A stretch of 24,414 bases of DNA from Longivirga aurantiaca. Its GTDB lineage: Bacteria > Actinomycetota > Actinomycetes > S36-B12 > CAIYMF01. Shown here in pieces: positions 5,674 to 24,190 of the stretch. Below the pieces are notes generated by a model. It had not been told where the DNA came from, did no database searches, and saw only the letters and a program-made list of their open reading frames with translations. The position numbers and the translations under genes are program-made. The stretch lies in NCBI RefSeq assembly GCF_042660085.1, contig NZ_JBHSTI010000015.1, positions 1 through 24,414 of the forward strand, in the 5' to 3' direction. Positions within the stretch are counted from its first letter, which is position 1. Every line of letters begins with the position of its first letter.

Positions 5674-7500
5674 CTACGAGGGGCGCGATGCGTTACGGAT
5701 GGTGACGATTCGCACTGCAAGCTGCAGAGGAAGCCAGTCTTCCGCGGAGTCCAGGTCGAGCCCAGTCACGACCGTGATTCGCTCAAGGCGCTGTCGCAGC
5801 GTGTTTCGGTGAATGCCGAGTTCGTCGGCGGCGTGGCTTCCGTTGCCGCGGGATGAGAGATACACGTCGAGGGTGCTGAGGAGCTGGGACCCGCGACGCC
5901 GATCATATTCGAGCAGCTGGTGGAGCCGCATGACCGTCGGGTCGTGATCGAACGCGGGGTCCACCGCAACTCGGTAGAGGTGCATCTCGCCGGCCAGGTC
6001 GTCGTAGTGATTCACTGGAGAGTCGCCCACCTTTGCGCCGATCTCGAGTGCTTCGCTTGCCTCGCGAAGTGCTGTCGGAAGATCCGTGACCCGCAGGACC
6101 ATTCGACTTATCCCTGCTTCAAGCCGCACGCCCCACTTTTGCGCTAGATCGTCTGCGAGTTGTTGGATGTGTCCCTGCAGCCTGCGATCGCCGTCTGGCT
6201 TGGCTACCTCGACCAGCCCGTAGATCTGATTCAGCGTGACGTGAGTGATCGAACCCGGGTTGAATCCTCGAATCATGGTGACCGCTGATGCCGTCGCACG
6301 GCTGACGTCCGACGGCTGGGTCTTGTCGCCCTGCTTTGCAGAAACAACGACGCGGGCGCGGAGCAGCACCAGTGGTCTGGTGAGGTTCGCGCCTAGCGCA
6401 GTGGCTATCGACGCTGTCTGATCATCGACCAGGTTCCGGCCGAGGCGTTCGAATACGACCCGGCTCGACTGCTCTGTGCCGCCCCAACGACTGGACGGAT
6501 CTGTGAGGGCAAGGCCGAGCTGACGGCCGATGATGGACATCAGGTCATGGTCTTCGTCTGAGAATCGGTGACGTCGGTAGCAACTCAAGAAACCGAGGCT
6601 GTCGTCGCCGACGACGAGCGGAACAGACGCGACGTTGCCCAGCCGCTCGGGTAGTTCCGAGTTCAAGTACCGCAGAAGTCGCGTTGACGCAGGGCTTGCG
6701 TCAACGGCGGTGCCCGCCTGCCCGGACGTCAGCGTCGCGACATCGTCTAGCACATCGGAACGGAATGGCGCGATCGCCCTGACGATCGGCTCCCCGGTCT
6801 CGGGGTCCGCAAGCACCAACACGCATAGGTCTGCCTCAAGTACTGCGACAGCCGCGTTGGCTACCGTGCCGAGGACTTCGAACGCCGGTCGGAGGGAGCA
6901 CAAGGTGGTGCTCAACTCGGACAGCGTATCGAGCATGTGCGCCCTTCGGGCGACTGCGCCACCGTTCGACGCGTTGCTGATTACTCCAGCGAGGAGGGCA
7001 GCCAGCTCCTTTGCTACCGCAAGATGAGAGTCTTCGAAGCGGTTCGGGGTCCTCGCATTTAGAGAGAGAACCCCAATGAGAACTTGGCCGCCGCGAAGAA
7101 GCGGGATCTTGGCTGTGGATTCGTAGTTCTCCTCGTTCAGTTCAGGAAAGAGTTGGAAGTGCGGGTCCTTCGCTGGCGCCCTGTTTACGACAACCGCTCG
7201 TTGCCGAAGTGCGGCGAGCCCGCTGAGACCTTGCCCGAGGTGCACTTCCACTCGATGAAGGTAACTCTTCTCGACCCCCTCGGTAGCCGCCGTCAGGACC
7301 AGCGTCTCCCGTTGCGAATCCCAAAGATGTAGGAAGGCCCCATCGGCATCGGTTGCGTCACGAACGATCTCCACGACACGTCCGAAGAAGTCGGCGAGCT
7401 CCAGGTTCATCCCCACTGCAAAGACGATCTGCGACAACGCGACGCGCAGGCGTTCCGCGCGATCTAGAGCCCGACGAATGTCACCGACGTCGGTGACCAC
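5674..7500 (-). CDS. GAF-GAF-PucR-type transcriptional regulator
   Basis: Two GAF-like segments are present (...DADGAFLHLWDSQRETLVLTAA...GQGLSGLAALRQRAVVVNRAPAKDPHF...VLIGVLSLNARTPNRFED; and ...LEADLCVLVLADPETGEPIV...SLGFLSCYRRHRFSDEDHDLM). The C-terminal PucR HTH is AADELGIHRNTLRQRLERITVVTGLDLDSAEDWLPLQLAVRIV. The start is uncertain. GTG 7500 is preceded by GGAG; GTG 7548 is also possible; the ORF stays open to GTG 7809. Confidence 0.8.
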   Translation of the reverse strand: MVTDVGDIRRALDRAERLRVALSQIVFAVGMNLELADFFGRVVEIVRDATDADGAFLHLWDSQRETLVLTAATEGVEKSYLHRVEVHLGQGLSGLAALRQRAVVVNRAPAKDPHFQLFPELNEENYESTAKIPLLRGGQVLIGVLSLNARTPNRFEDSHLAVAKELAALLAGVISNASNGGAVARRAHMLDTLSELSTTLCSLRPAFEVLGTVANAAVAVLEADLCVLVLADPETGEPIVRAIAPFRSDVLDDVATLTSGQAGTAVDASPASTRLLRYLNSELPERLGNVASVPLVVGDDSLGFLSCYRRHRFSDEDHDLMSIIGRQLGLALTDPSSRWGGTEQSSRVVFERLGRNLVDDQTASIATALGANLTRPLVLLRARVVVSAKQGDKTQPSDVSRATASAVTMIRGFNPGSITHVTLNQIYGLVEVAKPDGDRRLQGHIQQLADDLAQKWGVRLEAGISRMVLRVTDLPTALREASEALEIGAKVGDSPVNHYDDLAGEMHLYRVAVDPAFDHDPTVMRLHQLLEYDRRRGSQLLSTLDVYLSSRGNGSHAADELGIHRNTLRQRLERITVVTGLDLDSAEDWLPLQLAVRIVTIRNASRPS

Positions 7501-8135
7501 GGGCTCCGTGGCCTGACCGCTTTCAACATCAGAGTTCAGTGCACCCACCTCACAAACATCGGGGAGACAGCACCATGTCCTCGCGGGAGTATGGAAGTCA
7601 ACACGAGTGCCGAGTTCCACAGTTGATGGGCGCACGGCGGTCCCCGGGTCTATCCGATTCTGAACCGTTTCGGCTCCTCCGCCGGCATTAGCATTCGAGA
7701 ACGGACCGACGTAGGTGAACACTTCGCCGGTCAGCGTCGCTCGATGGACCCCGCCCTTCAGTTGCGACGATGACCACGGCCTTCGTGATCGGACCCGGCT
7801 GCGGCACACGCTCCGGGACCATTCGCGCAGTGCGGTCCTTCACTTCACGATCGATCGCGGATTGGCCTCGACTGCTGCAGTGTCCCTATACGAGCCGCCA
7901 GCTATTGCAAGCTCGCCTCGAATGCTCAGTCAATCTGCGGTTGCGCTCGACGACTCGCACGGTGACGCGAGAAAGTAGTTGACCGCCTAATCGCGATCTC
8001 AATGGTCCCGGAAGTCGACGACTGTTGTCCCGCGTTGCTGATGCCCGGCAGTAGCGCTTCCACTGAAACTAGGCATCGCTAATCGCGCGTCCCACAAGCC
8101 GCCGCGGCCACCGCGGGTGACGCGTTCCAACAGCT

Positions 8136-9494
8136 TCAGCCGTCTGTCGAGATGAAGATGTTCTTTAGTTCGGTGTATCCGTCGAGGGCCGTCATTCCGA
8201 GCTCCCGTCCCATGCCCGACTGCTTGAACCCACCGAATGGAGCCTGTAGGCGGACTGAGGTACTGGAATTCACCGAAATCGAGCCAGTCTCGAGTCCGCG
8301 CGAGACGCGGATCGCTCTGCCCACGTCACGGGTCCAGACCGATCCCGACAAGCCGAATATCGTGTCGTTGGCGAGAGTGATTGCATCGGCCTCGTCATCG
8401 AACGGGATGATGGTCACGATGGGTCCAAAGATCTCTTCTCGCACAACTCGATGATCGCGAGGCGGATTCAGGACGATGTGGGGTGACATCCAATGGCCGG
8501 GCCCCGTGGGTGCCTCCGTCGGCGCGACCACATCGAGCTCGATATCGAGAAATGACTCGACCTTGTCAAGGTGGTTCCCCGAGACCAAAGGGCCCATCGT
8601 TGTGGCCGCATCGAGCGGATCTCCCACCACCATGGATCCCGTAGCCGACGTGAACAGTTTGACGAACTCGTCGTATGCCCCGCGTTCGACAAGAATTCGA
8701 CTTCGGGCACAGCAGTCTTGACCCGAGTTGCCGAACACTGCGCCTGTGCTCTCGACCGCCACCCTTTCCAGGTCGGCGTCCTCGAAAATGACCGCCGCGG
8801 ACTTCCCACCCAGCTCGAGGGTGACGCGCTTCATGGTACCTGCCGCAGAGCGCATGATCGTCTGACCAGTCTCGGTTGAACCAGTGAAGCTGATCTTACC
8901 TATCCCGGGGTGCTCCGTTAGTGCAGTGCCGACGATGGGGCCCTTTCCGAGGACAACCTGGAATAACCCGTCGGGAAGGTCAGCATTTGAGATCAGTTCC
9001 CCGAACTTGCAGATGGATAGCGGGGTTATTTCTGCCGGCTTTACAATCACAGAATTGCCGCAGGCAATGGCGGCTGCCACATTCCAGGCGGCAATCGCCA
9101 ACGGAAAGTTCCACGGTGCGATGACGGCTACCACTCCTATCGGCTCATGCACAGTGAAGTCCATGCCGCCGTCCACTGGGATGGTCTGGCCGAAGAACTT
9201 GTCGATGGCGCCGGCGTAGTAATCGAATGTGTCGGCCACCATGGACACCTCGGCTCGACTGGCTCCGATCGGTTTGCCGACATTCGACGTCTCAATGCGG
9301 GCAAGCTCTTCCGAGTTTGCCCGCACTAGTTCGGCGATACGTCGCAGCCCATCGATGCGGCTGCGTTGAGGCAGTCGGGCCCACGTCCGCTGGGCACGCT
9401 GGGCGCGTTCGACAACATCGTCAACCAACGCAAGCGGCGTGTCCCGAAGCTCAGCGATCACGGCGAGGGTGGAAGGGTTGACGATCAGACTCAT
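8136..9494 (-). CDS. NAD(P)+-dependent aldehyde dehydrogenase
   Basis: 452-aa ORF with the Glu motif VTLELGGKSA, the catalytic Cys motif FGNSGQDCCARSR, plus FTGSTETG, EEIFGPIV and PFGGFKQSGMGRE. ATG at 9492-9494 has a GAGG-like sequence upstream. Confidence 0.9.
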   Translation of the reverse strand: MSLIVNPSTLAVIAELRDTPLALVDDVVERAQRAQRTWARLPQRSRIDGLRRIAELVRANSEELARIETSNVGKPIGASRAEVSMVADTFDYYAGAIDKFFGQTIPVDGGMDFTVHEPIGVVAVIAPWNFPLAIAAWNVAAAIACGNSVIVKPAEITPLSICKFGELISNADLPDGLFQVVLGKGPIVGTALTEHPGIGKISFTGSTETGQTIMRSAAGTMKRVTLELGGKSAAVIFEDADLERVAVESTGAVFGNSGQDCCARSRILVERGAYDEFVKLFTSATGSMVVGDPLDAATTMGPLVSGNHLDKVESFLDIELDVVAPTEAPTGPGHWMSPHIVLNPPRDHRVVREEIFGPIVTIIPFDDEADAITLANDTIFGLSGSVWTRDVGRAIRVSRGLETGSISVNSSTSVRLQAPFGGFKQSGMGRELGMTALDGYTELKNIFISTDG

Positions 9495-10232: not shown

Positions 10233-10634
10233 GTGTTTGACGTCAGGACCACAGGTGACGAGGCCTTGATCCGTCTTCGGCTCGCACCCAGCGACGCTCG
10301 GTACGCGGGCAACCTCGTCGCCGGCTCCAAAGCGCTGGAGATCTTTGCCGATCTCGAGACCGAGTTGTCACTGCGCGAAGGCGGCGATGAGGGACTTTGC
10401 GTCTCATACAGCTCGGTCAACTTCGCTGCCCCCCTGCGCGTTGGGGACTTCGTCGAAGGCATCGCGAGGGTCGTGGAGCGCGGCAACACCAGCCGCAAGG
10501 TCGAGGCTCGCCTCTACAAAGTGCTGAGCGTGGACGAGAAGGGCCTGTTGATCGATCAGGACGGTCCGGTGTTGGCCGTCTCCGCGGTGGCGACGATCGT
10601 CGTCGGCCGAGGAACTGCTGCGCAGGAGTCCTGA
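10233..10634 (+). CDS. Hot-dog fold protein resembling 3-aminobutyryl-CoA ammonia-lyase (Kal) / beta-alanyl-CoA ammonia-lyase
   Basis: The 133-aa product contains ...RLRLAPSDARYAGNLVAGSKALEIFADLETELSLREGGDEGLCVSYSSVNFAAPLRVGDFVEGIARVVERGNTSRKVEARLYKV... The Y-x-G-x-LV-x-G, GDEGL, F-x-AP-(L/V)-x-x-GD-(F/Y) and GNTSRK stretches match my recollection of Kal-family proteins. GTG start with a strong RBS. The stop is 1 nt before the ligase start. Confidence 0.65.
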   Translation: MFDVRTTGDEALIRLRLAPSDARYAGNLVAGSKALEIFADLETELSLREGGDEGLCVSYSSVNFAAPLRVGDFVEGIARVVERGNTSRKVEARLYKVLSVDEKGLLIDQDGPVLAVSAVATIVVGRGTAAQES

Positions 10635-10635
10635 C

Positions 10636-12126
10636 GTGTCAACTTTCGGGAGCACCCTCGTTTCGTGGATCGGGGCGGTTGCGCGGGCACACCCGAACGA
10701 TCCGGCCTTGATCTTCGAAGGTGACACGTGGACATACAAGGACCTCTGGCATCGTTCAGCCTCGATCTCCCGCGAGCTATTGGCGAAAGGCCTTCGCCGC
10801 GGAGAATCCGTTGGGCTCGTCGGAGCAAACGAAGCGGTGTACGTCGCGACCTACTTCGGGATCATGCGTGCCGGCGCAACGGCGGTTCCCCTGAACGCCA
10901 TGCTCGACGTCAAGTCGCTCCGCGAACAACTTGAGCTCGTCGAAGCCACCAGCGTCTTCGTCGGTCACGTCGCCGAGGGTGTTCGAGACGAGCTCGCTGA
11001 GTCCTTTCGAGTTCTCCCCATGCATGGCTCAGGCGCCGCTGTCAGCCGTTCCCAGCTACCGGCCGTTAGAACGAACACTCCGTGTTCGATCATGCTCACG
11101 AGCGGCTCCACCGGGAAGCCCAAGGGAGCTGTCCACACGCAAGGAACGATGCTGCACGCTGCGCTTCAACTGGGCTCCATGTTCCCATTCGGCCCTGGTC
11201 AGCGAGGTGTGGTCTTTCTCCCGCTGTACGCCTGTATCCCGGAGCAGGTCTTGCCGATGCTGTGCATGGGCGGCGCGTTGGAGATCCTGCCGCGATTCGA
11301 CATCGAGAGAATCGCGGACGCCTGCCTCCAGGCGACGACGTTTGATGCCGTTCCCACCGTGATGGGCCGGCTCATCGAGCACGCTCCCTTGGACAAGCTC
11401 GCTCACCTCGAATGGGTTCTGTTCGCATCTGAAGCGATGCCGACCGCCTTGATCAACCGGTGGTGGGAGGAACTCCCCAACGTGGAGACACATCAGTTCT
11501 ATGGGATGACCGAGATCCTCCCGCTCACGGCCGCAAGTCATCGAATGCTTCGTGCCGAACCGACGACCGTGGGTCGGGCTTTCCCGACCACCTCGATCCG
11601 AGTTCAAGCGACTGACGGCTTCGAGTCTCTCGATGGCAGCGGTGAATTGGTCGGGATGAGCCCCGCCCGAATGCTGGGCTACTACAACGACGATCCAGCG
11701 ACTGCTCGCGCGGTATCAACCACTGGGGGAATGCACACAGGCGACATCGGACGTATCGACGAGAACGGGTTCGTGTATCTCACGGGACGCCTGAAGGACA
11801 TCATCATCACGGGCGGCATCAATGTCTCGCCCGGCGAGATCGAGCACGTCGCTTGCCACCACCCGGACGTTCTCTCAGCGATCGTTGTCGGGCTCCAGAG
11901 TCAGCGGTGGGGCGAAACGCCCGTCGTCGTTGCCGTGGCGAAGCCTGGCCGTGACCTCTCAGCGGATGAACTTCTCCGATACTGCCGGAGCAATCTCGCT
12001 AGTTACAAGCGCCCGTCCGGAGCCGCTGTCGTAACGAGCCTCCCGACGACCGGCATTGGCAAGGCTGCAAAGGAATCAGTCAAGCAGATGATCATGGACG
12101 GGGTGATCCTGCTTGTTCACGCGTGA
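10636..12126 (+). CDS. AMP-forming acyl-CoA ligase (adenylate-forming superfamily)
   Basis: 496 aa with the AMP-binding motifs MLTSGSTGKPKGAVHT, FYGMTE, HTGDIGRIDENGFVYLTGRLKDII and the C-terminal YKRP. GGAG lies 7 nt before GTG 10636. Confidence 0.9.
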   Translation: MSTFGSTLVSWIGAVARAHPNDPALIFEGDTWTYKDLWHRSASISRELLAKGLRRGESVGLVGANEAVYVATYFGIMRAGATAVPLNAMLDVKSLREQLELVEATSVFVGHVAEGVRDELAESFRVLPMHGSGAAVSRSQLPAVRTNTPCSIMLTSGSTGKPKGAVHTQGTMLHAALQLGSMFPFGPGQRGVVFLPLYACIPEQVLPMLCMGGALEILPRFDIERIADACLQATTFDAVPTVMGRLIEHAPLDKLAHLEWVLFASEAMPTALINRWWEELPNVETHQFYGMTEILPLTAASHRMLRAEPTTVGRAFPTTSIRVQATDGFESLDGSGELVGMSPARMLGYYNDDPATARAVSTTGGMHTGDIGRIDENGFVYLTGRLKDIIITGGINVSPGEIEHVACHHPDVLSAIVVGLQSQRWGETPVVVAVAKPGRDLSADELLRYCRSNLASYKRPSGAAVVTSLPTTGIGKAAKESVKQMIMDGVILLVHA

Positions 12127-13042
12127 GAGCCTCGAGACCGTACTGTCGGATGGTCGAGCAGGACTGTGGGGGCCGCTCGCCCGGGCGATCACTCGTGTCG
12201 AAAACACTCCGCCCTGGGAGGTTTCGATCTCCCGAGGGCCTACTCCGACGCACATCGTCGGCATCACTGGCCCGCCCGGTGCCGGCAAGTCCACCCTGAC
12301 CGGTCGGCTCATCGCGGCCTATGCAGACGCGGGCCAGCGCGTCGCGGTTCTCGCGATCGACCCATCAAGCCCCCTGAGCGGTGGAGCCGTACTGGGGGAT
12401 CGCCTGCGGATGGAGACGCACCTCAATGGGCGACCCAACGTCTTCGTGCGCAGTCTCGCGAGCCGAGGGTCACATGGCGCGGTGGCCGGTGCGACCCGAA
12501 ACATCGCGCGACTCCTAGAATTGTCAGGTCTGTTCGACGTCATCTTGATCGAGACGGTGGGTGCTGGACAGACCGAGGTCGCGATCGTAGAGGTGGCCGA
12601 CACCGTCGTGTTAGTGACAGTGCCGGGCTTGGGTGACGCAGTGCAAACGATCAAGGCAGGCCTGATGGAGGTCGCTGACATGTTCATTGTGAACATGGCT
12701 GACCGACCGGGGGCAGCCGAAACTGCTCGCCACCTCCGTCTAGCGGCTGGCCGAGCAGGACTCGTCCTCCAAACCACGGCCCGTGATGGGATCGGTGTAG
12801 ATGAAGTTCGCACAGCCCTACAGAACCGATGGGCGGAGCTGGCGAACGAGGGGCGGTTGGACGAACTGAGGGCCCACAAGTGGGGCTCGGACGCGGCGTT
12901 GATCGCCGAGGCCTGGGTAGGTGCCTGCGCTCGGGAGATGCCGGTCGCTATCCGCGAGACGATGGTAGGAGCCGTCGAAGAGATCTTGATCGACGCGTCA
13001 AAGCGTTGGCAGTTACAACGGCAGGAGCACCGAAATGAGTGA
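12113..13042 (+). CDS. MeaB/ArgK-type G3E GTPase chaperone for a B12 mutase
   Basis: Walker A GITGPPGAGKST, then AIDPSSPLSGGAVLGDRLRM and IETVGAGQTE. The base-specificity motif reads NMAD (12692-12703) instead of NKxD. The TTG start overlaps the ligase by 14 nt; the stop overlaps the mutase ATG by 8 nt. Confidence 0.9.
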   Translation: MFTRESLETVLSDGRAGLWGPLARAITRVENTPPWEVSISRGPTPTHIVGITGPPGAGKSTLTGRLIAAYADAGQRVAVLAIDPSSPLSGGAVLGDRLRMETHLNGRPNVFVRSLASRGSHGAVAGATRNIARLLELSGLFDVILIETVGAGQTEVAIVEVADTVVLVTVPGLGDAVQTIKAGLMEVADMFIVNMADRPGAAETARHLRLAAGRAGLVLQTTARDGIGVDEVRTALQNRWAELANEGRLDELRAHKWGSDAALIAEAWVGACAREMPVAIRETMVGAVEEILIDASKRWQLQRQEHRNE

Positions 13043-14714
13043 CACCACATCCGCCAGCGATGCAAGCGTCGAGGCGTGGAAAAGGGAAACCCTAGCCGCT
13101 GACTACGAGCGCGTGCGCCCGCGTCGGGATCAGTACCAGACGCTGTCTGGAGCGGCGATCAATGACGTCTACACCCCTGGAGACCTTGGTGGCTTTGACC
13201 ACGACCGTGACCTAGGCCTTCCGGGCCAGTACCCGTACACGCGAGGCGTCCACGCAAGCATGTTCCGCGGCCGGCCCTGGACAATTCGTCAGGTTGCAGG
13301 CTTCGGTCAGGCCGAAGACACCAACAACCGATACAAGTATCTGCTCAAGACAGGACAGACGGGCTTGTCTACGGACTTCGACCTGCCGACCCTGTTGGGC
13401 TACGACTCGGATCACGAGGTCTTCCGTCGTGAGGTCGGGAAGATCGGTGTCGCGATTGACACGGTTGTGGACATGCACGCTCTGTTCGATGAGATCCCTC
13501 TGGACCAGATCTCGACGTCCATGACCATCAACCCGACCGCGGCGATCTTGCTAGCGATGTATCGCGTTGTCGGCGACGAACGCGGCTTCTCCGGGGACGC
13601 ACTCACTGGGACGACGCAGAACGACATCCTCAAGGAGTACACGGCGCAGAACGAGTTCATCTTCCCCCCTCTTCCGGCGGTTGAGCTAGTTGTGGACACG
13701 ATGGAGTACGGCGCCCAAGTGATGCCTCGCTTCAATCCTCTCAATGCCTGCGGATACCACATCAGAGAAGCGGGCGCGACCGCGGTGGAAGAGGTTGGGC
13801 TGACAATCAGCGCGGCGCTGTGCTACCTGGAGCACGCAGTGGCGCGCGGCATCGACGTTGATCGGCTTGCACCGCGCGTGTCGTTCTTCTGGGACGTCCA
13901 CAACAACTTCTTCGAGGAGGCGGCCAAGCTGCGCGCAGCCCGTCGGCTTTGGGCACGGCTCATGCGCGAGCGGCTGAATTGCAAGAATCCCAAGTCGTGG
14001 CTCATGCGGGCCCATTGTCAGACCGCGGGGGTGTCGTTGACGGCGCAGCAGCCGTACAACAACGTGGCACGCACAGCTTTGCAGGCCATGGCAGCCGTAC
14101 TCGGAGGCACACAGTCTCTGCACACCAACTCACTCGACGAGGCTCTGTCGATCCCTTCGGAGAGTGCCATCAAGATTGCGGTGAGGACGCAGCAGATCAT
14201 CCTGCACGAGACGGGTGTGGCAGACGTGGTGGATCCCTTGGGCGGCTCCTACTACGTGGAGGCCCTGACCACTCAGATCGAACAGGACGCCATGGCGCTG
14301 ATCGAGCGGATCGATGCCATGGGAGGCATGATCAACGCTGTCGAGTCCGGGTATGCCGGCCAGCTGATCGCCGACTCCGCCTGGGAGCAGCAGGTCAAGT
14401 TGGAGAGCAACGATTCGATTCAGGTCGGGGTGAACGACTTCGTCGACGAGACGGAGGGTCAGCAGATCGAGATTGACCGCCCTGTCCCCGGCGTCATGGA
14501 ACGTCAGATGCAGCGGCTCTCGGACGTGAAGCGCACACGTGAGCAGAGGCGCGTATCGGAGACACTCCGCGCTATCGAGACTGCCGCGCCGAACCTGCAC
14601 AACAACCTGATGCCCCTCATCGAGGACGCGGTGCGCGCGCGCGCCTCGGTGGGTGAGATCTCTGACGTCCTGCGTGGCACCTGGGGCCAGTACCAGCCCT
14701 CCACCGTCTTCTAG
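13035..14714 (+). CDS. B12-dependent acyl-CoA mutase, substrate-binding (TIM-barrel) large subunit, HcmA/IcmA-like
   Basis: 559 aa with PGQYPYTRGVHASMFRGRPWTIRQVAGFG, GLSTDFDLPTLLGYDSD, GTTQNDILKEYTAQNEFIFPP and ACGYHIREAGATAVEE. There is no fused B12 domain, as in the split ICM/HCM enzymes. Confidence 0.9.
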   Translation: MSDTTSASDASVEAWKRETLAADYERVRPRRDQYQTLSGAAINDVYTPGDLGGFDHDRDLGLPGQYPYTRGVHASMFRGRPWTIRQVAGFGQAEDTNNRYKYLLKTGQTGLSTDFDLPTLLGYDSDHEVFRREVGKIGVAIDTVVDMHALFDEIPLDQISTSMTINPTAAILLAMYRVVGDERGFSGDALTGTTQNDILKEYTAQNEFIFPPLPAVELVVDTMEYGAQVMPRFNPLNACGYHIREAGATAVEEVGLTISAALCYLEHAVARGIDVDRLAPRVSFFWDVHNNFFEEAAKLRAARRLWARLMRERLNCKNPKSWLMRAHCQTAGVSLTAQQPYNNVARTALQAMAAVLGGTQSLHTNSLDEALSIPSESAIKIAVRTQQIILHETGVADVVDPLGGSYYVEALTTQIEQDAMALIERIDAMGGMINAVESGYAGQLIADSAWEQQVKLESNDSIQVGVNDFVDETEGQQIEIDRPVPGVMERQMQRLSDVKRTREQRRVSETLRAIETAAPNLHNNLMPLIEDAVRARASVGEISDVLRGTWGQYQPSTVF

Positions 14715-14737
14715 AATGGAACGAGGAGATCACAGTC

Positions 14738-15175
14738 ATGGCTAATTCCCCCGCAACGAACTCTGCACCCCTCAAGGTCGTGGTGGCCAAACCTGGGCTC
14801 GATGGTCACGACCGTGGGGCCAAGGTCGTGGCACGCGCGCTGCGTGACTCAGGCATGGAAGTCGTCTACACGGGCATCTACCAGACCCCGGAGTCGATCA
14901 TGCGCGCCGTCATCCAGGAGGACGCCGACGTCCTTGGTCTGTCCAGCCTCTCCGGTGCCCATCTGGATTATGCGGAGGAGCTCGGTCAGCTACTGCGGGC
15001 CAACGACAGAGCTGACGTGCTGTTCGTTGCGGGCGGAACCATTCCTCCAGAGGATGCAGTCAAGTTGAAGGAGTACGGAGTGCACGAGGTCTTCGGCCCC
15101 GGAACGCCGACGACTGTTCTGGTCGAGTACGTCACCACTTACGCAAGGAATGTGTCTGCCATCCCAGTTCAGTAG
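14738..15175 (+). CDS. Acyl-CoA mutase small subunit, cobalamin-binding domain
   Basis: 145 aa with KVVVAKPGLDGHDRGAKVVARAL (DxHxxG), LSSLSG (SxL) and VAGGTIP (GG). RBS GAGGAG at 14723-14728. Confidence 0.9.
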   Translation: MANSPATNSAPLKVVVAKPGLDGHDRGAKVVARALRDSGMEVVYTGIYQTPESIMRAVIQEDADVLGLSSLSGAHLDYAEELGQLLRANDRADVLFVAGGTIPPEDAVKLKEYGVHEVFGPGTPTTVLVEYVTTYARNVSAIPVQ

Positions 15176-15320
15176 CACCCCAGTTCTCGCAGGCCTACAC
15201 ACGATCCTCGCCGGGCGCTCTCATTGTGCGGATGTAATCGCCAGATTCGACGCGTATTCAAGCGAAGCCAAGTCGTCCAATGAGTTCACCTGCGCGGCAG
15301 GTTGGAGACGGAGCAGTAAA

Positions 15321-15899
15321 GTGGTCCACTTGACGCGCATATACACGCGCACTGGGGATGGCGGGCAAACCAGCCTCGGTGACATGAGCAAGACCAGCAA
15401 GTTGGATACCCGACTCCTTGCATACGCTGACGTTGACGAGGCGAACAGCCAAATCGGATTTGCGATCGCGTTGGGCGGGCTCGACGCGGACGTCGTGGAT
15501 GTACTGCGACAGGTCCAGAACGAGATGTTCGACGTCGGGGCTGACCTTTGCTGCCCCGTCGCAAAAGACCCGGCTCATCCGCCATTGAGAATCGAACCTG
15601 ACTACATCCGCAGACTGGAGCGCTGGTGCGATCACTACAACGCCCAGCTGCCAGATCTACGCTCCTTCATCTTGAGGGGGGGAGCTCCTTCTGCCGCCGC
15701 CGTGCACATCGCCTGTACCGTGACGCGACGCGCAGAGCGCTCGGCGTGGGCGGCCATCCAGGATCACGGCCCCACGATGAATGTTCTGACTGCGAAGTAC
15801 CTGAACCGCCTCAGTGATCTACTTTTCGTCCTGGCGCGGTATGCCAACCGAGACCTAGGGGATGTCCTCTGGGAGCCGGGGGGAGAGCGATCTACGTGA
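15321..15899 (+). CDS. PduO-type ATP:cob(I)alamin adenosyltransferase
   Basis: VVHLTRIYTRTGDGGQTSLGD...LLAYADVDEANSQIG...FILRGG...HIACTVTRRAERS...YLNRLSDLLFVLAR. GTG 15321 has GGAG 7 nt upstream. The frame is open from ATG 15150, but that 57-aa extension shows no family similarity. Confidence 0.85.
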   Translation: MVHLTRIYTRTGDGGQTSLGDMSKTSKLDTRLLAYADVDEANSQIGFAIALGGLDADVVDVLRQVQNEMFDVGADLCCPVAKDPAHPPLRIEPDYIRRLERWCDHYNAQLPDLRSFILRGGAPSAAAVHIACTVTRRAERSAWAAIQDHGPTMNVLTAKYLNRLSDLLFVLARYANRDLGDVLWEPGGERST

Positions 15900-16070
15900 A
15901 GGCCGGTCGCGGGTCCTTCGACGTCCCGCTTGTCTGTGGCTCGCCGGGCAACGGGGCGTTGAATGGGTTGGCCTCTGAGAGCCACAGCCAGGTCGGCGAG
16001 ATGGTCAGGTGTACCGCTACCGCTGCCTGGACGAGGCATTCTCCTTCGGGCCGCCACCCAGGTGGCTTTC

Positions 16071-16949
16071 GTGCTTGACGGGGCGGAGGGCATCCGACGC
16101 GTCGGCGTCGTCGGCAGCGGAATGATGGGATCCGGCATCGCTGAGGTCTGCGCCCGTGCCGGATACAAGGTCAGCGTGTACGACCTCACGCCCGAGTCCG
16201 CCGAGGCTGGTCTCGAGCGAATCCAGCGGTCGCTCCTCCGGGCCGAGAGAGCAGGAAAGGTCACCACCGAAGCTCGGATGTCAGCTCTGGGCCGGATCAA
16301 TGTGCATACGGACCTATGGCGCCTCGAGGGCAGTGACCTTGTCATCGAGGCGGCGACCGAGAACGAGCAGCTGAAGCTGGAGATTTTTCGGAAGCTAGAC
16401 GAGGTCGTCACGTCCACCGATGCCATTCTCGCCAGCAACACGTCCTCGATTCCGATCATGAACATCGCCATGGCGACAAGCCGTCCTGAGCACGTTATCG
16501 GAGTTCACTTCTTCAATCCGGCGACGATTCTCGATCTGGTTGAGATCGTGCCCTCACTCCTCACGGCTCCAAAGGTGATCGACCGAGCGAGCATTTTCGT
16601 GACTGCTGCCCTGAGCAAGACCGTCATCCGGGCGCCGGATCGCGCTGGGTTCATTGTGAACTTCCTTATCGTCCCCTACCTGCTTGCAGCCATACGCATG
16701 TACGAATCGGGCTTCGCCGCAGCAGAGGATGTTGACCGCGGAATGGTGTTGGGTTGCGGTCATCCGATGGGCCCGCTTCGGCTGGCGGATCTCATCGGCC
16801 TCGACACCGTAAGCGCCATTGCGCATGCGATGTACCTGGAGCACAAGGAGCCGTTGTACTCGTCGCCGCCTCTGCTTCAGCGCATGGTTTCTGCCGGTCT
16901 GGTCGGACGGAAGGTTGGTCGCGGCTTCTATGCCTACCCAGAGCCTTAG
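16071..16949 (+). CDS. 3-hydroxybutyryl-CoA / 3-hydroxyacyl-CoA dehydrogenase (NAD-dependent, Hbd/PaaH type)
   Basis: RRVGVVGSGMMGSGIAEVCARAG (Rossmann fold), EAATENEQLKLEIF, ASNTSS, GVHFFNP, DRAGFIVN, GHPMGPLRLADLIGLD, GRKVGRGFY. The start is uncertain: GTG 16071 or 16062 give a normal N-terminus, and the ORF is open from ATG 15963. Confidence 0.85.
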   Translation: MLDGAEGIRRVGVVGSGMMGSGIAEVCARAGYKVSVYDLTPESAEAGLERIQRSLLRAERAGKVTTEARMSALGRINVHTDLWRLEGSDLVIEAATENEQLKLEIFRKLDEVVTSTDAILASNTSSIPIMNIAMATSRPEHVIGVHFFNPATILDLVEIVPSLLTAPKVIDRASIFVTAALSKTVIRAPDRAGFIVNFLIVPYLLAAIRMYESGFAAAEDVDRGMVLGCGHPMGPLRLADLIGLDTVSAIAHAMYLEHKEPLYSSPPLLQRMVSAGLVGRKVGRGFYAYPEP

Positions 16950-17000: not shown

Positions 17001-17753
17001 ACCTCGGAGTGATCCTCGGTAGCAGTCTCGACAACGATGCCGGCGTAGACCGAAGACGATGGTGAACCGACACTTGACCCTGAGCATCGCTGACCGGGCC
17101 GACGAGATTGAATACACGCTCATGGCGATGGGTCGAGGCGCTCTACTGTCGTGGTGACCAAGAGCTCTTCTATCCGCGATGTCCGGCGAGCAATGGCGTG
17201 GTCAATGCTGATGAGTTGCCCCCGGTGTTCGTCGTCCCGTCCAGCCAGGTTGCGCCGGTTGCACCGCTGCGGTAAGCGGCTTGGGGCGATGGGTTGAAGC
17301 CTCACCCACGCTTGTCGCGCGCAGGGCTGCATCCCAGCCTCGGTGTAAGCGACCACGACGGGGGGCGTAGCTTCGCCTTGATCGCCGCCAAGCCTTCAAG
17401 TGAGGAACCCACGTCCGTGTCGTAGGAGTGTCGCCGACCCGAACCTGACTTCGACAGCGGTTACGAGGTCACTTGGAGCACCGTGCACGACCGCCCGGTT
17501 CGCGAACAGCGCGATCAACACCGCGGTCTGCCCCCGGATCCAACCGGCGGCCGCCGATCGCTTCGGTAATCGCGGTGCCGAAGGCTAGGGGCGCGGTCCC
17601 ACGTCTGGCTTCACAAACACGCCGCGCACAGCGACCGCGACCCCAGCAACCGCCGGGGACTCCCCAATTCCGCCACCTGGGTCCGTCGCCGTGCGCAGGG
17701 GTCGCGGCACCGAAATCAGCGCCATCCAGATCAGCCCACGGTACTGACCGGAT

Positions 17754-17978
17754 TCAACCGATCGTCGCACCACCGGCTTCTTGCAGCGACTGTAGAAGTT
17801 CTTCGAAGGCCTCGGCGGGTGTCTTCCATCCGAGGATCTTGCGAGGCTTGCCGTTGATGGCGGCGGCGACAGCCTGGATCTCCTCGTTGCTCCAGCGCGA
17901 TAGGTCGGTGCCCTTGGGGAAGTACTGGCGCAGCAGCCCGTTGGTGTTCTCATTGTCGGCGACGGGCGAAAGCTGGTC
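17754..17978 (-). pseudogene. IS30-family transposase, C-terminal fragment
   Basis: The minus strand reads ...SPVADNENTNGLLRQYFPKGTDLSRWSNEEIQAVAAAINGKPRKILGWKTPAEAFEELLQSLQEAGGATIG*. NENTNGLLRQYFPKGTDLS is the conserved IS30 C-terminal signature. Stop at 17754-17756. Confidence 0.8.
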
Positions 17979-18016
17979 ACTATCGACGCTCGAAAAGTGA
18001 ACAGGTGCGGGGCAGT

Positions 18017-18848
18017 CTAGGTCGGGTTGTCGTCGGTGGTGATGCGGGTGCTGGGGAGGCTGTCGAGGTCTCGTCCGCGCACGCGGTAGCTGGCGCCTTT
18101 GAGGGTCAGGACGTCGGCGTGGTGGACGAGGCGGTCGATCATGGCTGCGGCGACGACGTCATTCGCCGAACACCTCGCCCCACCGTCCGAAGGGCTTGTC
18201 GCTGGTCACCGATCAGCGAGGCTCGTTCGTAGCGGGACGAGACGAGCTGGAAGAAAACAGGTTCGCAGCTTCGGGCTCGAACGGGATGTAGCCGACCTCG
18301 TCGACGATCAGCAGCGGGTAGCGGCCCAGGCGTCGCAGTTCGTCCTGCAGGCGGCCGGCGTGGTGGGCGTCGGCGAGGCGGGCGACCCTTTCCGCGGCGG
18401 TCGCGAACAGGACCCGGTGCCCGGCCTGGCAGGCCCGGATCCCGAGGCCGATCGCGAGGTGGGTCTTCCCGGTCCCGGGCGGTCCGAGGAACACGACGTT
18501 CTCCCGTGCGGCGACGAAGTCCAGGGTCCCGAGGTGGGCGATCTGGTCGCGTTTGGGGGACCGGGCATGGTCGAAGTCGAACTCCTCGAGGGCCTTCCGT
18601 GACGGGAACCTCGCAGCTCTCACCCTGCCTTCGCCGCCGTGGGATTCCCGGGCGGAGACCTCGCGTTGCAGGCAGGCGGCGAGGAACTCCTCATGGGTCC
18701 AGGACTCCGCCCGTGCCCGCTCGGCGAGCCGGTCGACTGCTTCACGCAGCGACGGGGCCTTGAGCGCGCGGGTCAGGAACACCAGCTCAGCGCTGACATC
18801 ACGCCCGGTCCGAGGTGTCGCCGCGGTGGCGGTTCGCGCGGCCATCAC
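18017..18848 (-). pseudogene. istB: IstB-like ATPase with multiple frameshifts
   Basis: The 211-aa ORF carries Walker A GPPGTGKT and Walker B LLIVDEVG but ends prematurely (..ANLFSSSSSRPATNEPR*). The expected continuation is found only by changing frame three times: LFFQLVSSRYERASLI, then VTSDKPFGRWGEVFG, then DVVAAAMIDRLVHHADVLTLKGASYRVRGRDLDSLPSTRITTDDNPT*. Shifts lie near 18240, 18215 and 18165; the original stop is at 18017-18019. Confidence 0.85.
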
Positions 18849-20083
18849 GCGACCGCCTCGGTCAGCCCGAACACGGTGTCGTAGCCGGACAGGGGCCGCT
18901 GCTCGACCTCACCGGTGACCTACGGGACAGCGACCCGGGACCGGGTCTGGCGCATCACGGCCGCCGCGGCGGCGTGCTCGGGGTCGGTGATGGACTGGTG
19001 GTCCGCCCAAGCGCGGGCATGGTCCGCGACGACCTTCCCACCGCAGGTCACCACCACCCGGTCCAGGTCAGCGATGACCTCGACGCGGCGACCGATCACC
19101 GAGGGGTGCACGGAGTAGTCGTTGGAGTCGATGCGGACGTAGTGGTCGCGCGGCAGCCGCACCGAAGCCCACCACCCGATCACCGGCGCCACCGGTGGCA
19201 GGGCGAGCATCGCGGCACGGTCCGCTTCCCACCGTTGCACCGGGCGGCAGCCCAGAGCCCGATGCCGGCGCTGGTTGGCGCGGGTGGTCAGCCAGGAGCT
19301 GAACTGCTCGTTGAAGTCCTGTGGCGAGGTGAACGACCGCCCGGGCAGGAACGACGTCTCGTAGTAGCCGTTGCCCCGTTCGACCAGGCCCTTGGCCTCG
19401 GGGTCGTTCGGCTTGCACTGGTGCACCGCGATGCCCAGCACCCCGCGGAACACCTCGATGTCCTCCGCGAGCTTGGGCTTCCCCGAGCGCCACGACCCGA
19501 CCGCGCCCTCGTTGTCCCAGACCAGCTCGCGCGGGACAGCGCCGATCCGCTCGAGCAGCTCCCAGTGCCCCGCGATCAGGTCCGGGGCCTGCCGCGCGGG
19601 GATCATCAACCCGTGCGACATCCGCGAGTAACCCGCGACTGTCACCAGCACCGGCAGACGACCGACCTGGCCATGCCCGAGCGGGATGTCCACCGGCGGG
19701 AACCACAGGTCGCACTGCATCCGATGCCCGGGCTCATACGAGGTCCGCGACGCCGGGTCCGGCGGCAGATAGAACGGGCGCAGCACCCAGACCCGGTCCT
19801 TGAGGATCGTGATCGAGTGCGACCAGCCGATCCGCTCCGCGATCACCGTCGCCGGCATCGTCGGAGTCGCCGCCAGCAGCTCCCGGATCCGCGGCTCGAC
19901 CGCATCGACCAGCGACCCCCGCGGAGGACGTTCGTACTTCGGCGGCGCGTCCCGCCGCAACGCCGCCCTCACCGTGTTCTTCGAGCACCCCAACCTCGAA
20001 GCGATCACCTTGATCGGCATCCCCTCGCTGCGGTGCAACCGACGAATCTCGGCCCAGTCCTCCATGCTCTTCACACTCCACAC
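18845..20083 (-). pseudogene. istA: IstA IS21 transposase with an in-frame premature TAG
   Basis: The 387-aa ORF has an N-terminal HTH (MEDWAEIRRLHRSEGMPIKVIASRLGCSKNTVRAAL) and a DDE core (QCDLW..., VWDNEGAV..., KPNDPEAKGLVERGNGY). It stops at TAG 18920-18922. The same frame continues 24 codons (VTGEVEQRPLSGYDTVFGLTEAVA) to TGA 18845-18847, which overlaps the istB ATG. Confidence 0.85.
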
Positions 20084-20092
20084 GATCTCGGA

Positions 20093-20131
20093 GGGGGTCA
20101 GTTTTCGGACGACGCCAGGGGGTCAGTTTTC
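20093..20131. repeat. Subterminal direct repeats of the IS21 left end (putative IstA binding sites)
   Basis: GGGGGTCAGTTTTC occurs twice, at 20093-20106 and 20118-20131, between the istA start and the element tip. This is typical of the multi-repeat ends of IS21-family elements. Confidence 0.6.
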
Positions 20132-20147
20132 ACCCGTCGTCGACACA

Positions 20148-20615
20148 GCTTGCTGTTGGCGACCATCTTCGCGACCTTAGGACGGCGCGCTCGACGCTCG
20201 GCGTGCCACTGCGCCACCGTCGCCCGATACTCCGCCTGCGACGAGCGGCTCGACGCGCCCCGACGCAGCTCTCGCGAGATCGTCGACGGATCACGACCCA
20301 GACGCCGAGCGACTCGCGAGCGCTGACCTTCTGGGCATGCCAGATCGCGATGTCCTCCCGCTCAGCGAACGACAGGTAACGGCCCGACACCTCGACAGGC
20401 AGACAAGGATTCACCCCGCCAGCGTGACGAAACCAGCGATAGCCGACCGGCTCGGACACGCCAGCCTCACTCGCAGCCACGTCGGTCTTCACGCCGCGAG
20501 CAACAGCCGCCCAGAACCTGACCCGATCCTCCCGCCACGCCACCGACGGGCGGCCCGGTGACGCGATCTGCCCTCGATAGGCACGCACCCGCTTCTGACG
20601 CGGGGTTGTTCCCAT
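20148..20615 (-). pseudogene. IS30-family transposase, N-terminal fragment with a frameshift
   Basis: From ATG 20613-20615: MGTTPRQKRVRAYRGQIASPGRPSVAWREDRVRFWAAVARGVKTDVAASEAGVSEPVGYRWFRHAGGVNP...YLSFAEREDIAIWHAQKVSARE. The expected (I)ARRLGRDPSTISRELRRGASSRSSQAEYRATVAQWHAERRARRPKVAKMVANSKL is read only after a -1 slip near 20325. The fragment ends at the IS21 tip. About 200 aa of the catalytic core are absent between this fragment and the C-terminal one. Confidence 0.75.
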
Positions 20616-20937
20616 CGCCCCACCGCTCCATCGAGGTGTTGCGACGACGAGTTGAATCCACCCTGAATACCTGGCTGATTGTGCACGACTGCACCTGTTC
20701 GCGTCGTGTAGGCAGGCACAGTTGTCCATTGATCCGCGGTCCAGGCTCGCGAATGATCTGAGGGCAGCCACGTGCTGGGTGCCGCCGGTTGGCGAACGCG
20801 GTCTGGGAAGCGTCACGCGAAGGAGTCCTTCCCAGTGTCACGGAGCCACAGCCACGCTGTCGAACTACGAAGGCAATGCAGCAGTCCGCGCGCAAGCGAT
20901 ATGAACACGCTCAGGACGATTCGGACCAAGGAGTCTC

Positions 20938-21726
20938 ATGCCAGCCCTCGCACTCACGTCGCGTCTCGCAGACCGCACTGCCGTAGTGACGGGAGCCGCT
21001 TCCGGTAACGGTCTCGGGATCGCTCAGAGGCTCCTCGCGGAAGGTGCGTCGGTCGTCTTCGTCGATCGTGACGCCGCGACGCTCAGCGAGGTTGTCCCGA
21101 ACGGAGATCAGAAGGCACTGGCTGTCGTCGCTGACGTCACCGATGCCGACAGCCTTCACGACATGGTCGAGTCCGTGATCGAGGCGTTTGGGTCTCTGGA
21201 CGTTCTCGTCAACAACGCCGGCATCGTGCGCTTCTCCGACTTCGACGACCTCGGTCTCGCTGAGTGGGAAGAGGTATTTCGGGTGAATTCAACCGGAGCA
21301 TTCCTGGCGGCGAAGGCCGCCGTCCCGGCGATGAAGAAGTCCCTCGCCAGCCGTGCCGGCACCGGCGCGATCGTGAACATCACGTCAACGGAAGCCCATG
21401 TAGTTCTCGCAAGCTCCGGCCACCCTCAGGTTCACTACAACGCCTCCAAGGGTGCCCTACACATGCTCAACCAAGGGCTCGCCATTGAACTGGGCTCAGA
21501 CCGAATTCGCGTGAACGCTGTTGCACCAGGCATCGTCGAGACGCCTTTCACGGCTCGAGCGATGCAGAACGAGAAGCTGCTGAACTGGTATCTCGAACGA
21601 ATCCCGCTAGGCCGCGTGGCGAAGCCCCAGGACGTAGCTGCAGCGGTCGCCTACCTTGCCTCGGAGGATGCCTCCTACGTCACTGGTACGACGATCTTCG
21701 TCGATGGGGGATGGACCGCACAGTAA
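20938..21726 (+). CDS. Short-chain dehydrogenase/reductase (classical SDR)
   Basis: VVTGAASGNGLG (TGxxxGxG), NNAG, the ITSTEA serine, YNASK (YxxxK) and PGIVETP. AAGGAG RBS before ATG 20938. Confidence 0.9.
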   Translation: MPALALTSRLADRTAVVTGAASGNGLGIAQRLLAEGASVVFVDRDAATLSEVVPNGDQKALAVVADVTDADSLHDMVESVIEAFGSLDVLVNNAGIVRFSDFDDLGLAEWEEVFRVNSTGAFLAAKAAVPAMKKSLASRAGTGAIVNITSTEAHVVLASSGHPQVHYNASKGALHMLNQGLAIELGSDRIRVNAVAPGIVETPFTARAMQNEKLLNWYLERIPLGRVAKPQDVAAAVAYLASEDASYVTGTTIFVDGGWTAQ

Positions 21727-22845: not shown

Positions 22846-23373
22846 TCACAGGTCCAGGGCTCGTCCCGGTTCCCACAGCACATCTCCGAGGTGCCGGTTC
22901 GTGTACCGGGCCAGGACGAACACCAGATCGCTGACGCGGTTCAGGTAGTTCGCGGCAAGCACGTTCACACCTGATCCGTGCTCGTCGATCGCCGCCCATG
23001 TCGAGCGTTCGGCTCGCCGGGTCACGGTGCAGGCGACGTGGATCGCGGCTCCGGCCGGCGTGCCGCCTCGCAGGACGAAGGAGCTCAGCTCCGGCAAGGG
23101 CGCGTTGAACGTGTCGCACAACCGTTCGAGCCGCTGGATGCAGGCGGGCTCGATCCTGAGGTGCGACGTCGTGTCCGCCTCGTCGACGGGCCGGCACAGG
23201 TCCGCCCCGACATCGAACAGCTCGTTCTGAATCTGGCGCAGCACATCGGCGACGTCCGGTTCGATGCCGCCGAAGCCCCCCAGGGAGATCGCAAGCCCGA
23301 TGTGGCTGTTGGCCTCGTCCACATCGGCGTAGGCCTGAAGACGCGAGTCCAGCTTGGAAGGCCTGGAATCGGA
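22846..23373 (-). pseudogene. Second PduO-type adenosyltransferase copy, N-terminally decayed
   Basis: Roughly 70% identical by eye to the 15321-15899 product from LQAYADVDEANSHIG to DVLWEPG. Upstream of SRPSKLDSRLQAY there is an in-frame TAG (23374-23376). The region that should encode the ATP-binding IYTRTGDGGQT motif is recognisable at DNA level but no longer translates. Confidence 0.75.
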
Positions 23374-24187: not shown

Positions 24188-24190
24188 ACG

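Follow-up and report, generated by a model that had tools for sequence, protein, structure and literature searches.

The 24,414-nucleotide stretch of Longivirga aurantiaca DNA analysed here at full length (contig NZ_JBHSTI010000015.1; hereafter the window) encodes a two-subunit acyl-coenzyme A (CoA) mutase that depends on B12 and whose specificity residues, Val87, Asp114 and Gln205 (V/D/Q), set it apart from methylmalonyl-CoA mutase (MCM), isobutyryl-CoA mutase (ICM) and 2-hydroxyisobutyryl-CoA mutase (HCM). Judging by the genes around it, we suggest that its physiological substrate is 2-aminoisobutyryl-CoA (Aib-CoA), the thioester of 2-aminoisobutyrate (Aib), and we put the probability of this at roughly 0.55. 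Isovalyl-type or other alpha,alpha-dialkyl-aminoacyl-CoAs are possibly substrates too, and 2-hydroxyisobutyryl-CoA may also be accepted. The amino substrate is argued for by the first gene of the operon, a homologue of the ammonia lyase Kal of lysine fermentation, by orthologues of 2,2-dialkylglycine decarboxylase (DGD) in the same operons of other organisms, and by the peptide and gamma-glutamyl modules that flank them. A wider proposal, which we hold at about even odds, is that the V/D/Q clade would be the first B12 carbon-skeleton mutase to have an aminoacyl-CoA as its substrate. With a ligase of its own and the Kal-like lyase, it would make up a third, new route of Aib breakdown, widespread in soil Actinobacteria and wired either to peptidases and peptide transporters, for fungal Aib-rich peptaibols, or to a gamma-glutamylation module, for tert-alkyl amines and amino alcohols.

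The open reading frame at 13035-14714 (+) encodes the large, substrate-binding subunit of 559 residues, and its start codon overlaps the stop of the preceding MeaB gene by 8 nt. TIGR00641 (acid_CoA_mut_N) matches it with 690.5 bits against a cut-off of 303.8, and the TIM barrel of the PF01642/TIGR00641 type is matched over its full length. Direct reading and a script agree on the three codons: GTT at 13293-13295 gives Val87 (RPWTIRQ-V-AGF), GAC at 13374-13376 gives Asp114, 27 residues further on (GLST-D-FDLPT), and CAG at 13647-13649 gives Gln205 (EYTA-Q-NEFIFPP). The best match in a phmmer search of all PDB sequences is 4r3u_A, HcmA of Aquincola tertiaricarbonis (E 1e-167), followed by human and bacterial MCMs. 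Alignment to 4r3u_A and to the MCM structures runs end to end, and against 4r3u_A it has a single one-residue gap, which lies upstream. V87 pairs with the Ile in RQIAGFG, D114 with the Asp in STDFD and Q205 with the Gln in AQKE; once the 11-residue tag offset is subtracted, these partners are Ile90, Asp117 and Gln208 of HcmA. Human and bacterial MCMs have Tyr/Ala/Arg in the same three columns.

A preliminary description of this DNA, made from the letters alone, had placed the triad at these codons and alignment positions, and both the codon reading and the phmmer alignment bear this out. The MCM residues Tyr89 and Arg207 and the Ala at +27 are replaced by Val, Gln and Asp, respectively. The Gln of the ICM pattern (Phe80/Gln198 with Ala at +27) is present, and the other two positions are Val and Asp. 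Relative to HcmA, Val takes the place of Ile90, and Asp117 and Gln208 are retained. Thus, the enzyme is neither MCM nor ICM and keeps the Asp and Gln of HCM, as had been claimed. The reference residues given there for MCM and ICM also hold, since Y/A/R and F/A/Q dominate among 150 representatives of the family (72 and 15 sequences, respectively) next to many unexplored triads. These representatives were clustered at 50% and contain no V/D/Q member; they were used for the spread of triads and a rough neighbour-joining tree only.

Val87 is strictly retained among the nearest relatives of the enzyme. All 120 closest database homologues (73-91% identity, with strictly conserved motifs) have V/D/Q; they come from Longivirga, Nocardioides, Streptomyces, Jiangella, Nonomuraea, Amycolatopsis, Haloechinothrix and many metagenome-assembled genomes (MAGs) of Solirubrobacterales. 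The same triad is found in further loci, here designated by L numbers (L004b, L007, L008, L033, L034). The HcmA clade has I/D/Q in 123 of 123 sequences, namely 120 PM1-type homologues and the proteins of M. petroleiphilum PM1, Xanthobacter Py2 and Mycolicibacterium sp. ELW1; Val, which the preliminary description had called non-canonical at this position, occurs in none of them. The ELW1 mutase has been implicated in the catabolism of isobutylene and 2-hydroxyisobutyric acid (2-HIBA) (PMC13188929). The rough tree joins the V/D/Q and I/D/Q clades as sisters. The two share 47-50% identity and are fixed differently at 89 positions, some of which flank the active-site motifs (T194, N196, N206, C239, R244, W286, H289, G332-S334); no obvious extra acidic ligand is among the 89. 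Because of this distance, the fixed differences and the invariance of V/D/Q, we regard V87 as the clade marker of a separate mutase family rather than as a point variant of HCM. The enzyme is best described as a new specificity variant, which keeps two HCM features (Asp and Gln) and lacks two (Ile90 and the hcl-type operon), and the V/D/Q pattern marks a large, unstudied B12 enzyme family of soil actinobacteria.

Two further mutase genes were seen in related loci. In a Nocardioides MAG (L004, 17040-18770) a second V/D/Q large-subunit gene, 80% identical, has a Peptidase S58 gene behind it. In a MAG of Solirubrobacterales (L014, 17515-19173) there is a remoter mutase, 47% identical, in which Val and Asp are kept (RQVVGLG, SNDFD) and the third position is not scorable. 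In the family at large, the acyl-CoA mutase substrates known are methylmalonyl-, isobutyryl-, ethylmalonyl-, 2-hydroxyisobutyryl- and pivalyl-CoA. Many deep lineages have triads matching no characterised enzyme (for example P0248 VVG, P0252 VVV, P0262 VVR, P0264 IVL, P0269 VDM, P0271 QDH). Probably the family takes a much wider range of substrates than its five or six known reactions cover.

The conserved core begins with a hotdog-fold protein of 133 residues (10233-10634, +), a homologue of Kal and of Acl2. Pfam gives it a weak 4HBT 'thioesterase' match only. The NCBIfam model of the lysine-fermentation enzyme, NF052388 (Lys_ferment_KAL), matches with E 8.6e-30 and 103.6 bits over positions 2-119 of 120, and the next independent family, the YciA thioesterase, reaches 15.9 bits; the match in between (NF052389, 79.1 bits) is a model of a fusion protein with a Kal domain of its own. 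The top PDB sequence match in phmmer is 4mtu, beta-alanyl-CoA:ammonia lyase 2, with E 1.9e-11 against at least 4.7e-6 for all others. The AlphaFold model (pLDDT 81) also finds 4mtu as its best Foldseek match (E 3.9e-9, TM 0.79, 28% identity), about a hundred-fold better than the thioesterases, which are at E 4e-7 or weaker with 18-24% identity. NCBI, JGI or UniRef already give several homologues the name 3-aminobutyryl-CoA ammonia-lyase. In Solirubrobacterales the hotdog domain is fused to an N-terminal RidA domain (Ribonuc_L-PSP; imine/enamine deaminase) in three loci (L028:6835-7620, L016:5811-6590, L015:5751-6572), and a homologue of the YbaK-type Cys-tRNA(Pro) deacylase adjoins the fusion in one of them (L028:6227-6748). 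The fusion and its neighbour are a hint that reactive imines arise and that a non-protein amino acid may be mischarged onto tRNA. Thus, the closest genetic companion of the V/D/Q mutase is, by homology, a relative of aminoacyl-CoA ammonia lyases, and it has no counterpart in canonical HCM operons.

The mutase gene of the window lies in an operon of hotdog protein, ligase, MeaB, large subunit, small subunit, PduO-type adenosyltransferase and 3-hydroxybutyryl-CoA dehydrogenase. The AMP-forming acyl-CoA ligase (10636-12126, +) is of the FadD/MenE type, and we propose it as a 2-aminoisobutyrate-CoA ligase. It keeps its position in related loci and matches only generic ANL ligases in NCBIfam and PDB. 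It is no orthologue of HCL, the 2-HIBA-CoA ligase of PaaK type, and has no significant similarity to PM1 HCL outside the AMP motifs. The MeaB-type G-protein chaperone (12113-13042, +; TIGR00750, E 1.5e-70) adjoins the mutase in related loci too. The B12-binding small subunit of 145 residues (14738-15175, +; TIGR00640 acid_CoA_mut_C, 151 bits) has the DxHxxG motif as D22-G-H24-D-R-G27 (DGHDRG) in its translation, with codons from 14801. Next comes the ATP:cob(I)alamin adenosyltransferase (15150-15899, +; TIGR00636 PduO_Nterm, E 1.6e-46). Its true start is probably downstream of 15150, as the domain begins at residue 65 and matching contigs call the protein at 171 or 249 residues. The B12-binding partner, the chaperone and the adenosyltransferase expected beside such a mutase are all present. 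The last gene encodes an NAD-dependent (S)-3-hydroxybutyryl-CoA dehydrogenase (15963-16949, +; NF005875, 433 bits against a cut-off of 319), which probably starts about 100 nt downstream of 15963, as its domain begins at residue 42 and it is called at 292-295 residues in L030-L032.

The order hotdog-ligase-MeaB-large-small is kept in 14 of 16 V/D/Q genome loci (Nocardioides, Haloechinothrix, Jiangella, Streptomyces, Nonomuraea, Solirubrobacterales) and also in further loci reached through individual proteins, and the dehydrogenase is linked in the window and five other loci. Streptomyces malaysiensis and S. boninensis are among the species with the cluster. In 16 loci the V/D/Q core comes with a GntR regulator of the YmtS_Ross type, in place of which the canonical HCM loci carry GntR-FCD. 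The hcm operon has been described as hcmB-hcl-meaH-hcmA (PMC7176365), and the five canonical I/D/Q loci (L001-L003, L035, L036, including PM1, Py2 and ELW1) follow this order with a PaaK-type hcl. The window has neither the PaaK-type hcl, nor this gene order, nor GntR-FCD. Conversely, the Kal-like hotdog gene, the peptidase and DGD occur in none of the five canonical loci, which have no gamma-glutamyl genes either. Two metagenome contigs of Longivirga type (L025, L026) carry a paralogous core, with a mutase 91% identical in protein and core DNA 78% identical from hotdog gene through small subunit. Their flanks hold an aldehyde dehydrogenase (ALDH), a P450 with ferredoxin and ferredoxin reductase, two PucR regulators, an amino-acid permease, a short-chain dehydrogenase (SDR), two C26 hydrolases and a glutamine-synthetase-like gene. 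The resemblance of this set to the Ipu isopropylamine pathway suggests a tert-alkylamine as the starting substrate.

The flanks of other related loci are of two kinds. Streptomyces, Jiangella, Nonomuraea, Amycolatopsis and Mycobacteriales MAG loci have peptide-degrading flanks with Peptidase S58 (the D-aminopeptidase/DmpA/BapA family), S9 and M19 peptidases, beta-lactamase-like hydrolases and Opp-type peptide-binding proteins. The lineage of the window and Solirubrobacterales have gamma-glutamyl-amine flanks with a glutamine-synthetase-like enzyme, SDR, C26 hydrolase and ALDH, with or without a P450 system; loci of this type further include an amino-acid permease and a YbaK-type aminoacyl-tRNA deacylase. 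This second context is reminiscent of the pathways by which isopropylamine (Ipu) and ethanolamine are gamma-glutamylated. Either context would deliver an amino acid, not a hydroxy acid, to the ligase. DGD orthologues lie in or beside the operon in L004 (Nocardioides MAG), L010 (Nonomuraea), L015 and L017/L028 (Solirubrobacterales MAGs). They match the Burkholderia cepacia enzyme (1DGD/1D7R) over the full length with 528-600 bits (E 1e-157 to 1e-179), the next family reaching about 230 bits, and are mutually 60-75% identical, which identifies them as its orthologues. An aminotransferase in L014 was rejected as DGD at 32% identity. Aib is a substrate of DGD, which until 2021 was the only enzyme known to act on it; as of 2021 the known Aib routes were DGD and the AibH hydroxylase only (PMC7782822).

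Aib has no alpha-hydrogen and can be neither transaminated nor dehydrogenated. This is the problem that 2-HIBA poses for alcohol oxidation, and HCM solves it by a 1,2-shift of the thioester. We suggest that the V/D/Q system would do the same for the amine. The sequences themselves establish the three residues and their alignment, the invariance of the triad in the clade, the conservation of the operon and the homology of the neighbouring genes; substrate, role of Asp114, stereochemistry and order of steps are all inferred. Aib would be freed from Aib-rich peptides by the linked peptidases. In loci of the window type it would rather arise from a tert-alkyl amine or amino alcohol by gamma-glutamylation, oxidation through SDR and ALDH, and hydrolysis by the C26 enzyme; tert-butylamine or 2-amino-2-methylpropanol as the starting amine is our guess. 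The FadD-type ligase would then convert Aib to Aib-CoA. With MeaB and the adenosyltransferase loading the cofactor, the mutase (13035-15175) would move the thioester group from C2 to a methyl carbon, giving (S)-3-aminobutyryl-CoA. Asp114 would hold the amino (ammonium) group in the way Asp117 of HcmA holds the hydroxyl. Asp117 reportedly sets the (S) stereochemistry of the HcmA product, and the same Asp geometry would give the (S)-, that is L-, 3-aminobutyryl-CoA here, which is the isomer used by Kal. The Kal-like lyase would eliminate ammonia to form crotonyl-CoA, a crotonase would hydrate this to (S)-3-hydroxybutyryl-CoA, and the adjacent dehydrogenase would complete the route to acetoacetyl-CoA. 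Two shorter schemes were rejected on chemistry: direct elimination of ammonia from Aib-CoA, as there is no acidic beta-hydrogen, and 2-aminobutyrate or beta-aminoisobutyrate as substrate, as these require no mutase. Literature searches on aminoisobutyryl-CoA and on Aib or tert-butylamine combined with mutase found no such pathway described. Beta-valine catabolism sets a precedent, in that it handles an amine on a tertiary carbon with a CoA ligase and then a CoA-dependent ammonia lyase (PMC4619459).

Several observations weigh against an amino substrate. The triad alone is unable to tell a hydroxyl from an ammonium group, since the exchange of Ile for Val is conservative and the I90V variant of HcmA is said to remain active on hydroxy substrates. 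Hence, the amino-substrate idea of the preliminary description finds its backing in the gene context and not in the three residues. The V92I exchange of an evolved B. massiliosenegalensis enzyme is reported not to point at the active site and is uninformative on the Ile90 position. Alpha-aminoacyl-CoA thioesters are unusual metabolites, and comparison of the ligase with NCBIfam and PDB gave no recognisable amino-acid-binding signature and no clue to its specificity. The hotdog protein, at 103.6 bits, lies under the NF052388 equivalog cut-off of 160 bits, so that the reaction assigned to it is putative and we name it Kal-like, not Kal. No crotonase gene is found within the window. Moreover, seven related loci have a thiamine pyrophosphate (TPP) enzyme over the NCBIfam equivalog cut-off for the actinobacterial 2-hydroxyacyl-CoA lyase (637 against 600 bits): L004:11187-12941, L006:12296-14074, L007:6899-8653 (-), L008:6958-8697 (-), L011, L013:990-2699 (-) and L016:3089-4867 (-). 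The enzyme shares 44-49% identity with the TPP proteins encoded in the hcm clusters of ELW1 and PM1, lies inside the operon between small subunit and ligase in L004, and is accompanied in Jiangella by a second ligase paralogue. It points to the presence of 2-hydroxyisobutyryl-CoA in at least some of these pathways. The lyase may cleave 2-HIBA-CoA, re-assimilate acetone or cleave Aib-CoA to an imine.

These facts can be read as an ordinary HCM, which we consider unlikely, though worth serious attention. In such a scheme the ligase would activate 2-HIBA, or the linked lyase would make 2-HIBA-CoA from formyl-CoA and acetone, the latter coming from Aib through DGD; the product would pass straight to the 3-hydroxybutyryl-CoA dehydrogenase, and the hotdog protein would be a proofreading thioesterase or unrelated. 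HcmA is indeed the closest solved and characterised relative, a hydroxyacyl-CoA mutase; the two clades are sisters, Asp and Gln are kept, and Val at the Ile90 position is reportedly tolerated by HcmA, the I90V variant being active. The sequence DGD, lyase, mutase, dehydrogenase also makes a coherent passage from Aib by way of acetone to 2-HIBA-CoA, like the acetone pathway proposed for Desulfococcus, and the dehydrogenase, directly downstream in the window, is compatible with this as well as with the amino route. However, lyase and DGD are accessory and occur neither in the window nor in most loci, those of Streptomyces, Amycolatopsis and Mycobacteriales among them, and the Kal-like gene belongs to the invariant core and encodes a protein far closer to ammonia lyases than to thioesterases. 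The ligase is unrelated to HCL, operon order and type of regulator are unlike those of all canonical HCM loci, and the peptidase, peptide-transporter and gamma-glutamyl contexts deliver amino acids rather than 2-HIBA. We rank an ordinary HCM below the Aib-CoA mutase because it builds on accessory genes and leaves the core Kal-like gene and the non-HCL ligase unexplained.

Less probable still, and in our opinion doubtful, is a mutase for another polar branched acyl-CoA (isovaline-CoA, a 2-methylserine-type ester, another alpha,alpha-dialkyl amino acid or a beta-amino acyl-CoA), with Asp114 binding the polar group and Aib as a side substrate. Val in place of Ile makes a slightly larger pocket, the many uncharacterised triads of the family speak for diverse specificities, and Solirubrobacterales loci have a gene of the 3-hydroxyisobutyryl-CoA hydrolase type close by. 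Isovaline and further dialkylglycines are substrates of DGD too, which counts in the same direction. On the other hand, the dehydrogenase and the Kal-type (C4) lyase fit a C4 skeleton. Among the dialkyl amino acids found in nature, Aib, a constituent of peptaibols, is the most common by a wide margin (PMC7782822), and beta-amino acyl-CoAs can be deaminated with no mutase at all (PMC4619459). That the enzyme is an ordinary MCM or ICM misread through an alignment error deserves almost no credence. Generic NCBIfam models and database names do say methylmalonyl-CoA mutase family, but the alignment is unambiguous through the motifs RQxAGFG, SxxFD and KEYxAQ, the carboxylate ligands Tyr and Arg of MCM and the Phe of ICM are absent, and the large subunit scores 627 bits with the MCM equivalog NF006944, under its cut-off of 876.

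If the Aib-CoA mutase is correctly assigned, an amino-substituted substrate would represent a new reaction type in B12 radical chemistry, with an alpha-amino radical intermediate, and would explain the use of Aib by many soil actinobacteria. It would also offer a genetic handle on how bacteria break down peptaibol antibiotics, and possibly hindered amines from industry (2-amino-2-methylpropanol, tert-butylamine), and an enzyme interconverting alpha,alpha-dialkyl and beta-amino acids would be of interest for biocatalysis. The V/D/Q signature together with a linked Kal-like gene could serve as a simple rule, by which hundreds of genes labelled 'methylmalonyl-CoA mutase family' or 'thioesterase' would become re-annotatable.

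The other genes of the window (G+C 64%) fit around the operon as follows. Divergent from it lies an ALDH (8136-9494, -; PF00171, E 1e-155), whose nearest families are aminobutyraldehyde and betaine-aldehyde dehydrogenases. Solirubrobacterales and the second locus of Longivirga type likewise have an ALDH near the core, and we propose the enzyme as part of the feeder pathway from amine or amino alcohol to amino acid. Two regulators follow on the left, a PucR-type protein with GAF domains, a GGDEF-like domain and a C-terminal helix-turn-helix (5674-7809, -; Pfam GAF_2, GGDEF_2, HTH_30), which is also present in the paralogous locus L025, and the GntR-family regulator with the YmtS_Ross-type C-terminal domain (4586-5605, +; PF00392). 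On the right, the presumed feeder module comprises an SDR (20938-21726, +; NCBIfam SDR models) and a PuuD-like peptidase C26 that would act as a gamma-glutamyl-amide hydrolase (21818-22594, +; NF008471 gamma-glutamyl-GABA hydrolase, E 1e-31). This pair recurs in L025, L028, L015 and L017. A second C26 copy is at 1780-2538 (-; PF07722) and a second cobalamin adenosyltransferase at 22846-23322 (-; PF01923, E 1e-38). Neither a gamma-glutamyl synthetase nor a DGD gene is found within the window.

Insertion sequence (IS) elements are scattered across the region. An element of the IS21 family (17750-20661) separates the dehydrogenase and SDR genes, with istB-like (18213-18848, -) and istA-like (18920-20083, -) genes. 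The metagenome contigs L030-L032, 99.4% identical to the rest of the window, are without this copy of about 2.9 kb and continue into an amino-acid permease. At the left end (34-1473 and 456-1211 (-), 3346-4206 (-)) are a second, non-identical IS21 IstB gene and a DDE (DDE_Tnp_1_4) transposase. The window has no long repeats, and none connects one IS21 copy with the other. As a whole, the cluster has the appearance of a mobile catabolic island of mosaic make-up. A ParE toxin/Phd-YefM antitoxin pair was seen beside it (window 23667-24194, -; L030:17714-18234), which is consistent with a location on a plasmid or genomic island; megablast gave no match of the operon to plasmids. Rfam detected no riboswitch or other RNA in the window.

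Among known systems, HcmAB (Aquincola tertiaricarbonis L108, M. petroleiphilum PM1; PDB 4R3U) gives the best PDB match. Both have the same fold, two subunits, MeaB-type chaperone and adenosyltransferase genes alongside and a linked 3-hydroxybutyryl-CoA dehydrogenase, and Asp117 and Gln208 are common to both at 47-50% identity. However, HcmAB has Ile90 where the window enzyme has Val, a hcmB-hcl-meaH-hcmA operon instead of hotdog-ligase-MeaB-large-small, a PaaK-type HCL instead of a FadD-type ligase, and another type of regulator; the Kal-like lyase, DGD, peptidases or gamma-glutamyl genes accompany V/D/Q loci and no HCM locus. The (R)-specific RcmAB (Kyrpidia tusciae, B. massiliosenegalensis) is likewise a B12 acyl-CoA mutase for the same C4 tertiary skeleton. 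RcmA reportedly has Val at the Asp117 position, whereas Asp is retained in the window enzyme.

Kal of lysine fermentation and Acl2 (4MTU) are homologous to the window hotdog protein by profile, sequence and predicted fold, and the reaction we propose, 3-aminobutyryl-CoA to crotonyl-CoA and ammonia, is that of Kal. Unlike them, the window type occurs in aerobic actinobacteria without lysine-fermentation genes, always beside a B12 mutase and sometimes fused to RidA. Gamma-glutamylation pathways for amines include Ipu (Pseudomonas KIE171, isopropylamine), Puu and the GlnA-like systems of Streptomyces. The window and its relatives resemble these in their C26 hydrolases, SDR, ALDH and permease, and related loci add the glutamine-synthetase-like enzyme and the P450 system; we know of no earlier description of a link between gamma-glutamylation and a B12 mutase. 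BvaA and BvaB of Pseudomonas sp. SBV1 likewise couple CoA activation to a CoA-dependent ammonia lyase on a fully substituted carbon (PMC4619459). In this pathway the lyases have the crotonase fold, the ligase belongs to the PaaK type, and no mutase is required since the amine already sits in the beta position. Finally, DGD and AibH of Rhodococcus wratislaviensis share with the V/D/Q system the presumed substrate, Aib (PMC7782822), and DGD is linked to the V/D/Q mutase in four loci. These enzymes proceed by pyridoxal phosphate-dependent decarboxylation to acetone or by diiron hydroxylation to methylserine, whereas the route proposed here would combine CoA activation, B12-dependent rearrangement and elimination of ammonia.

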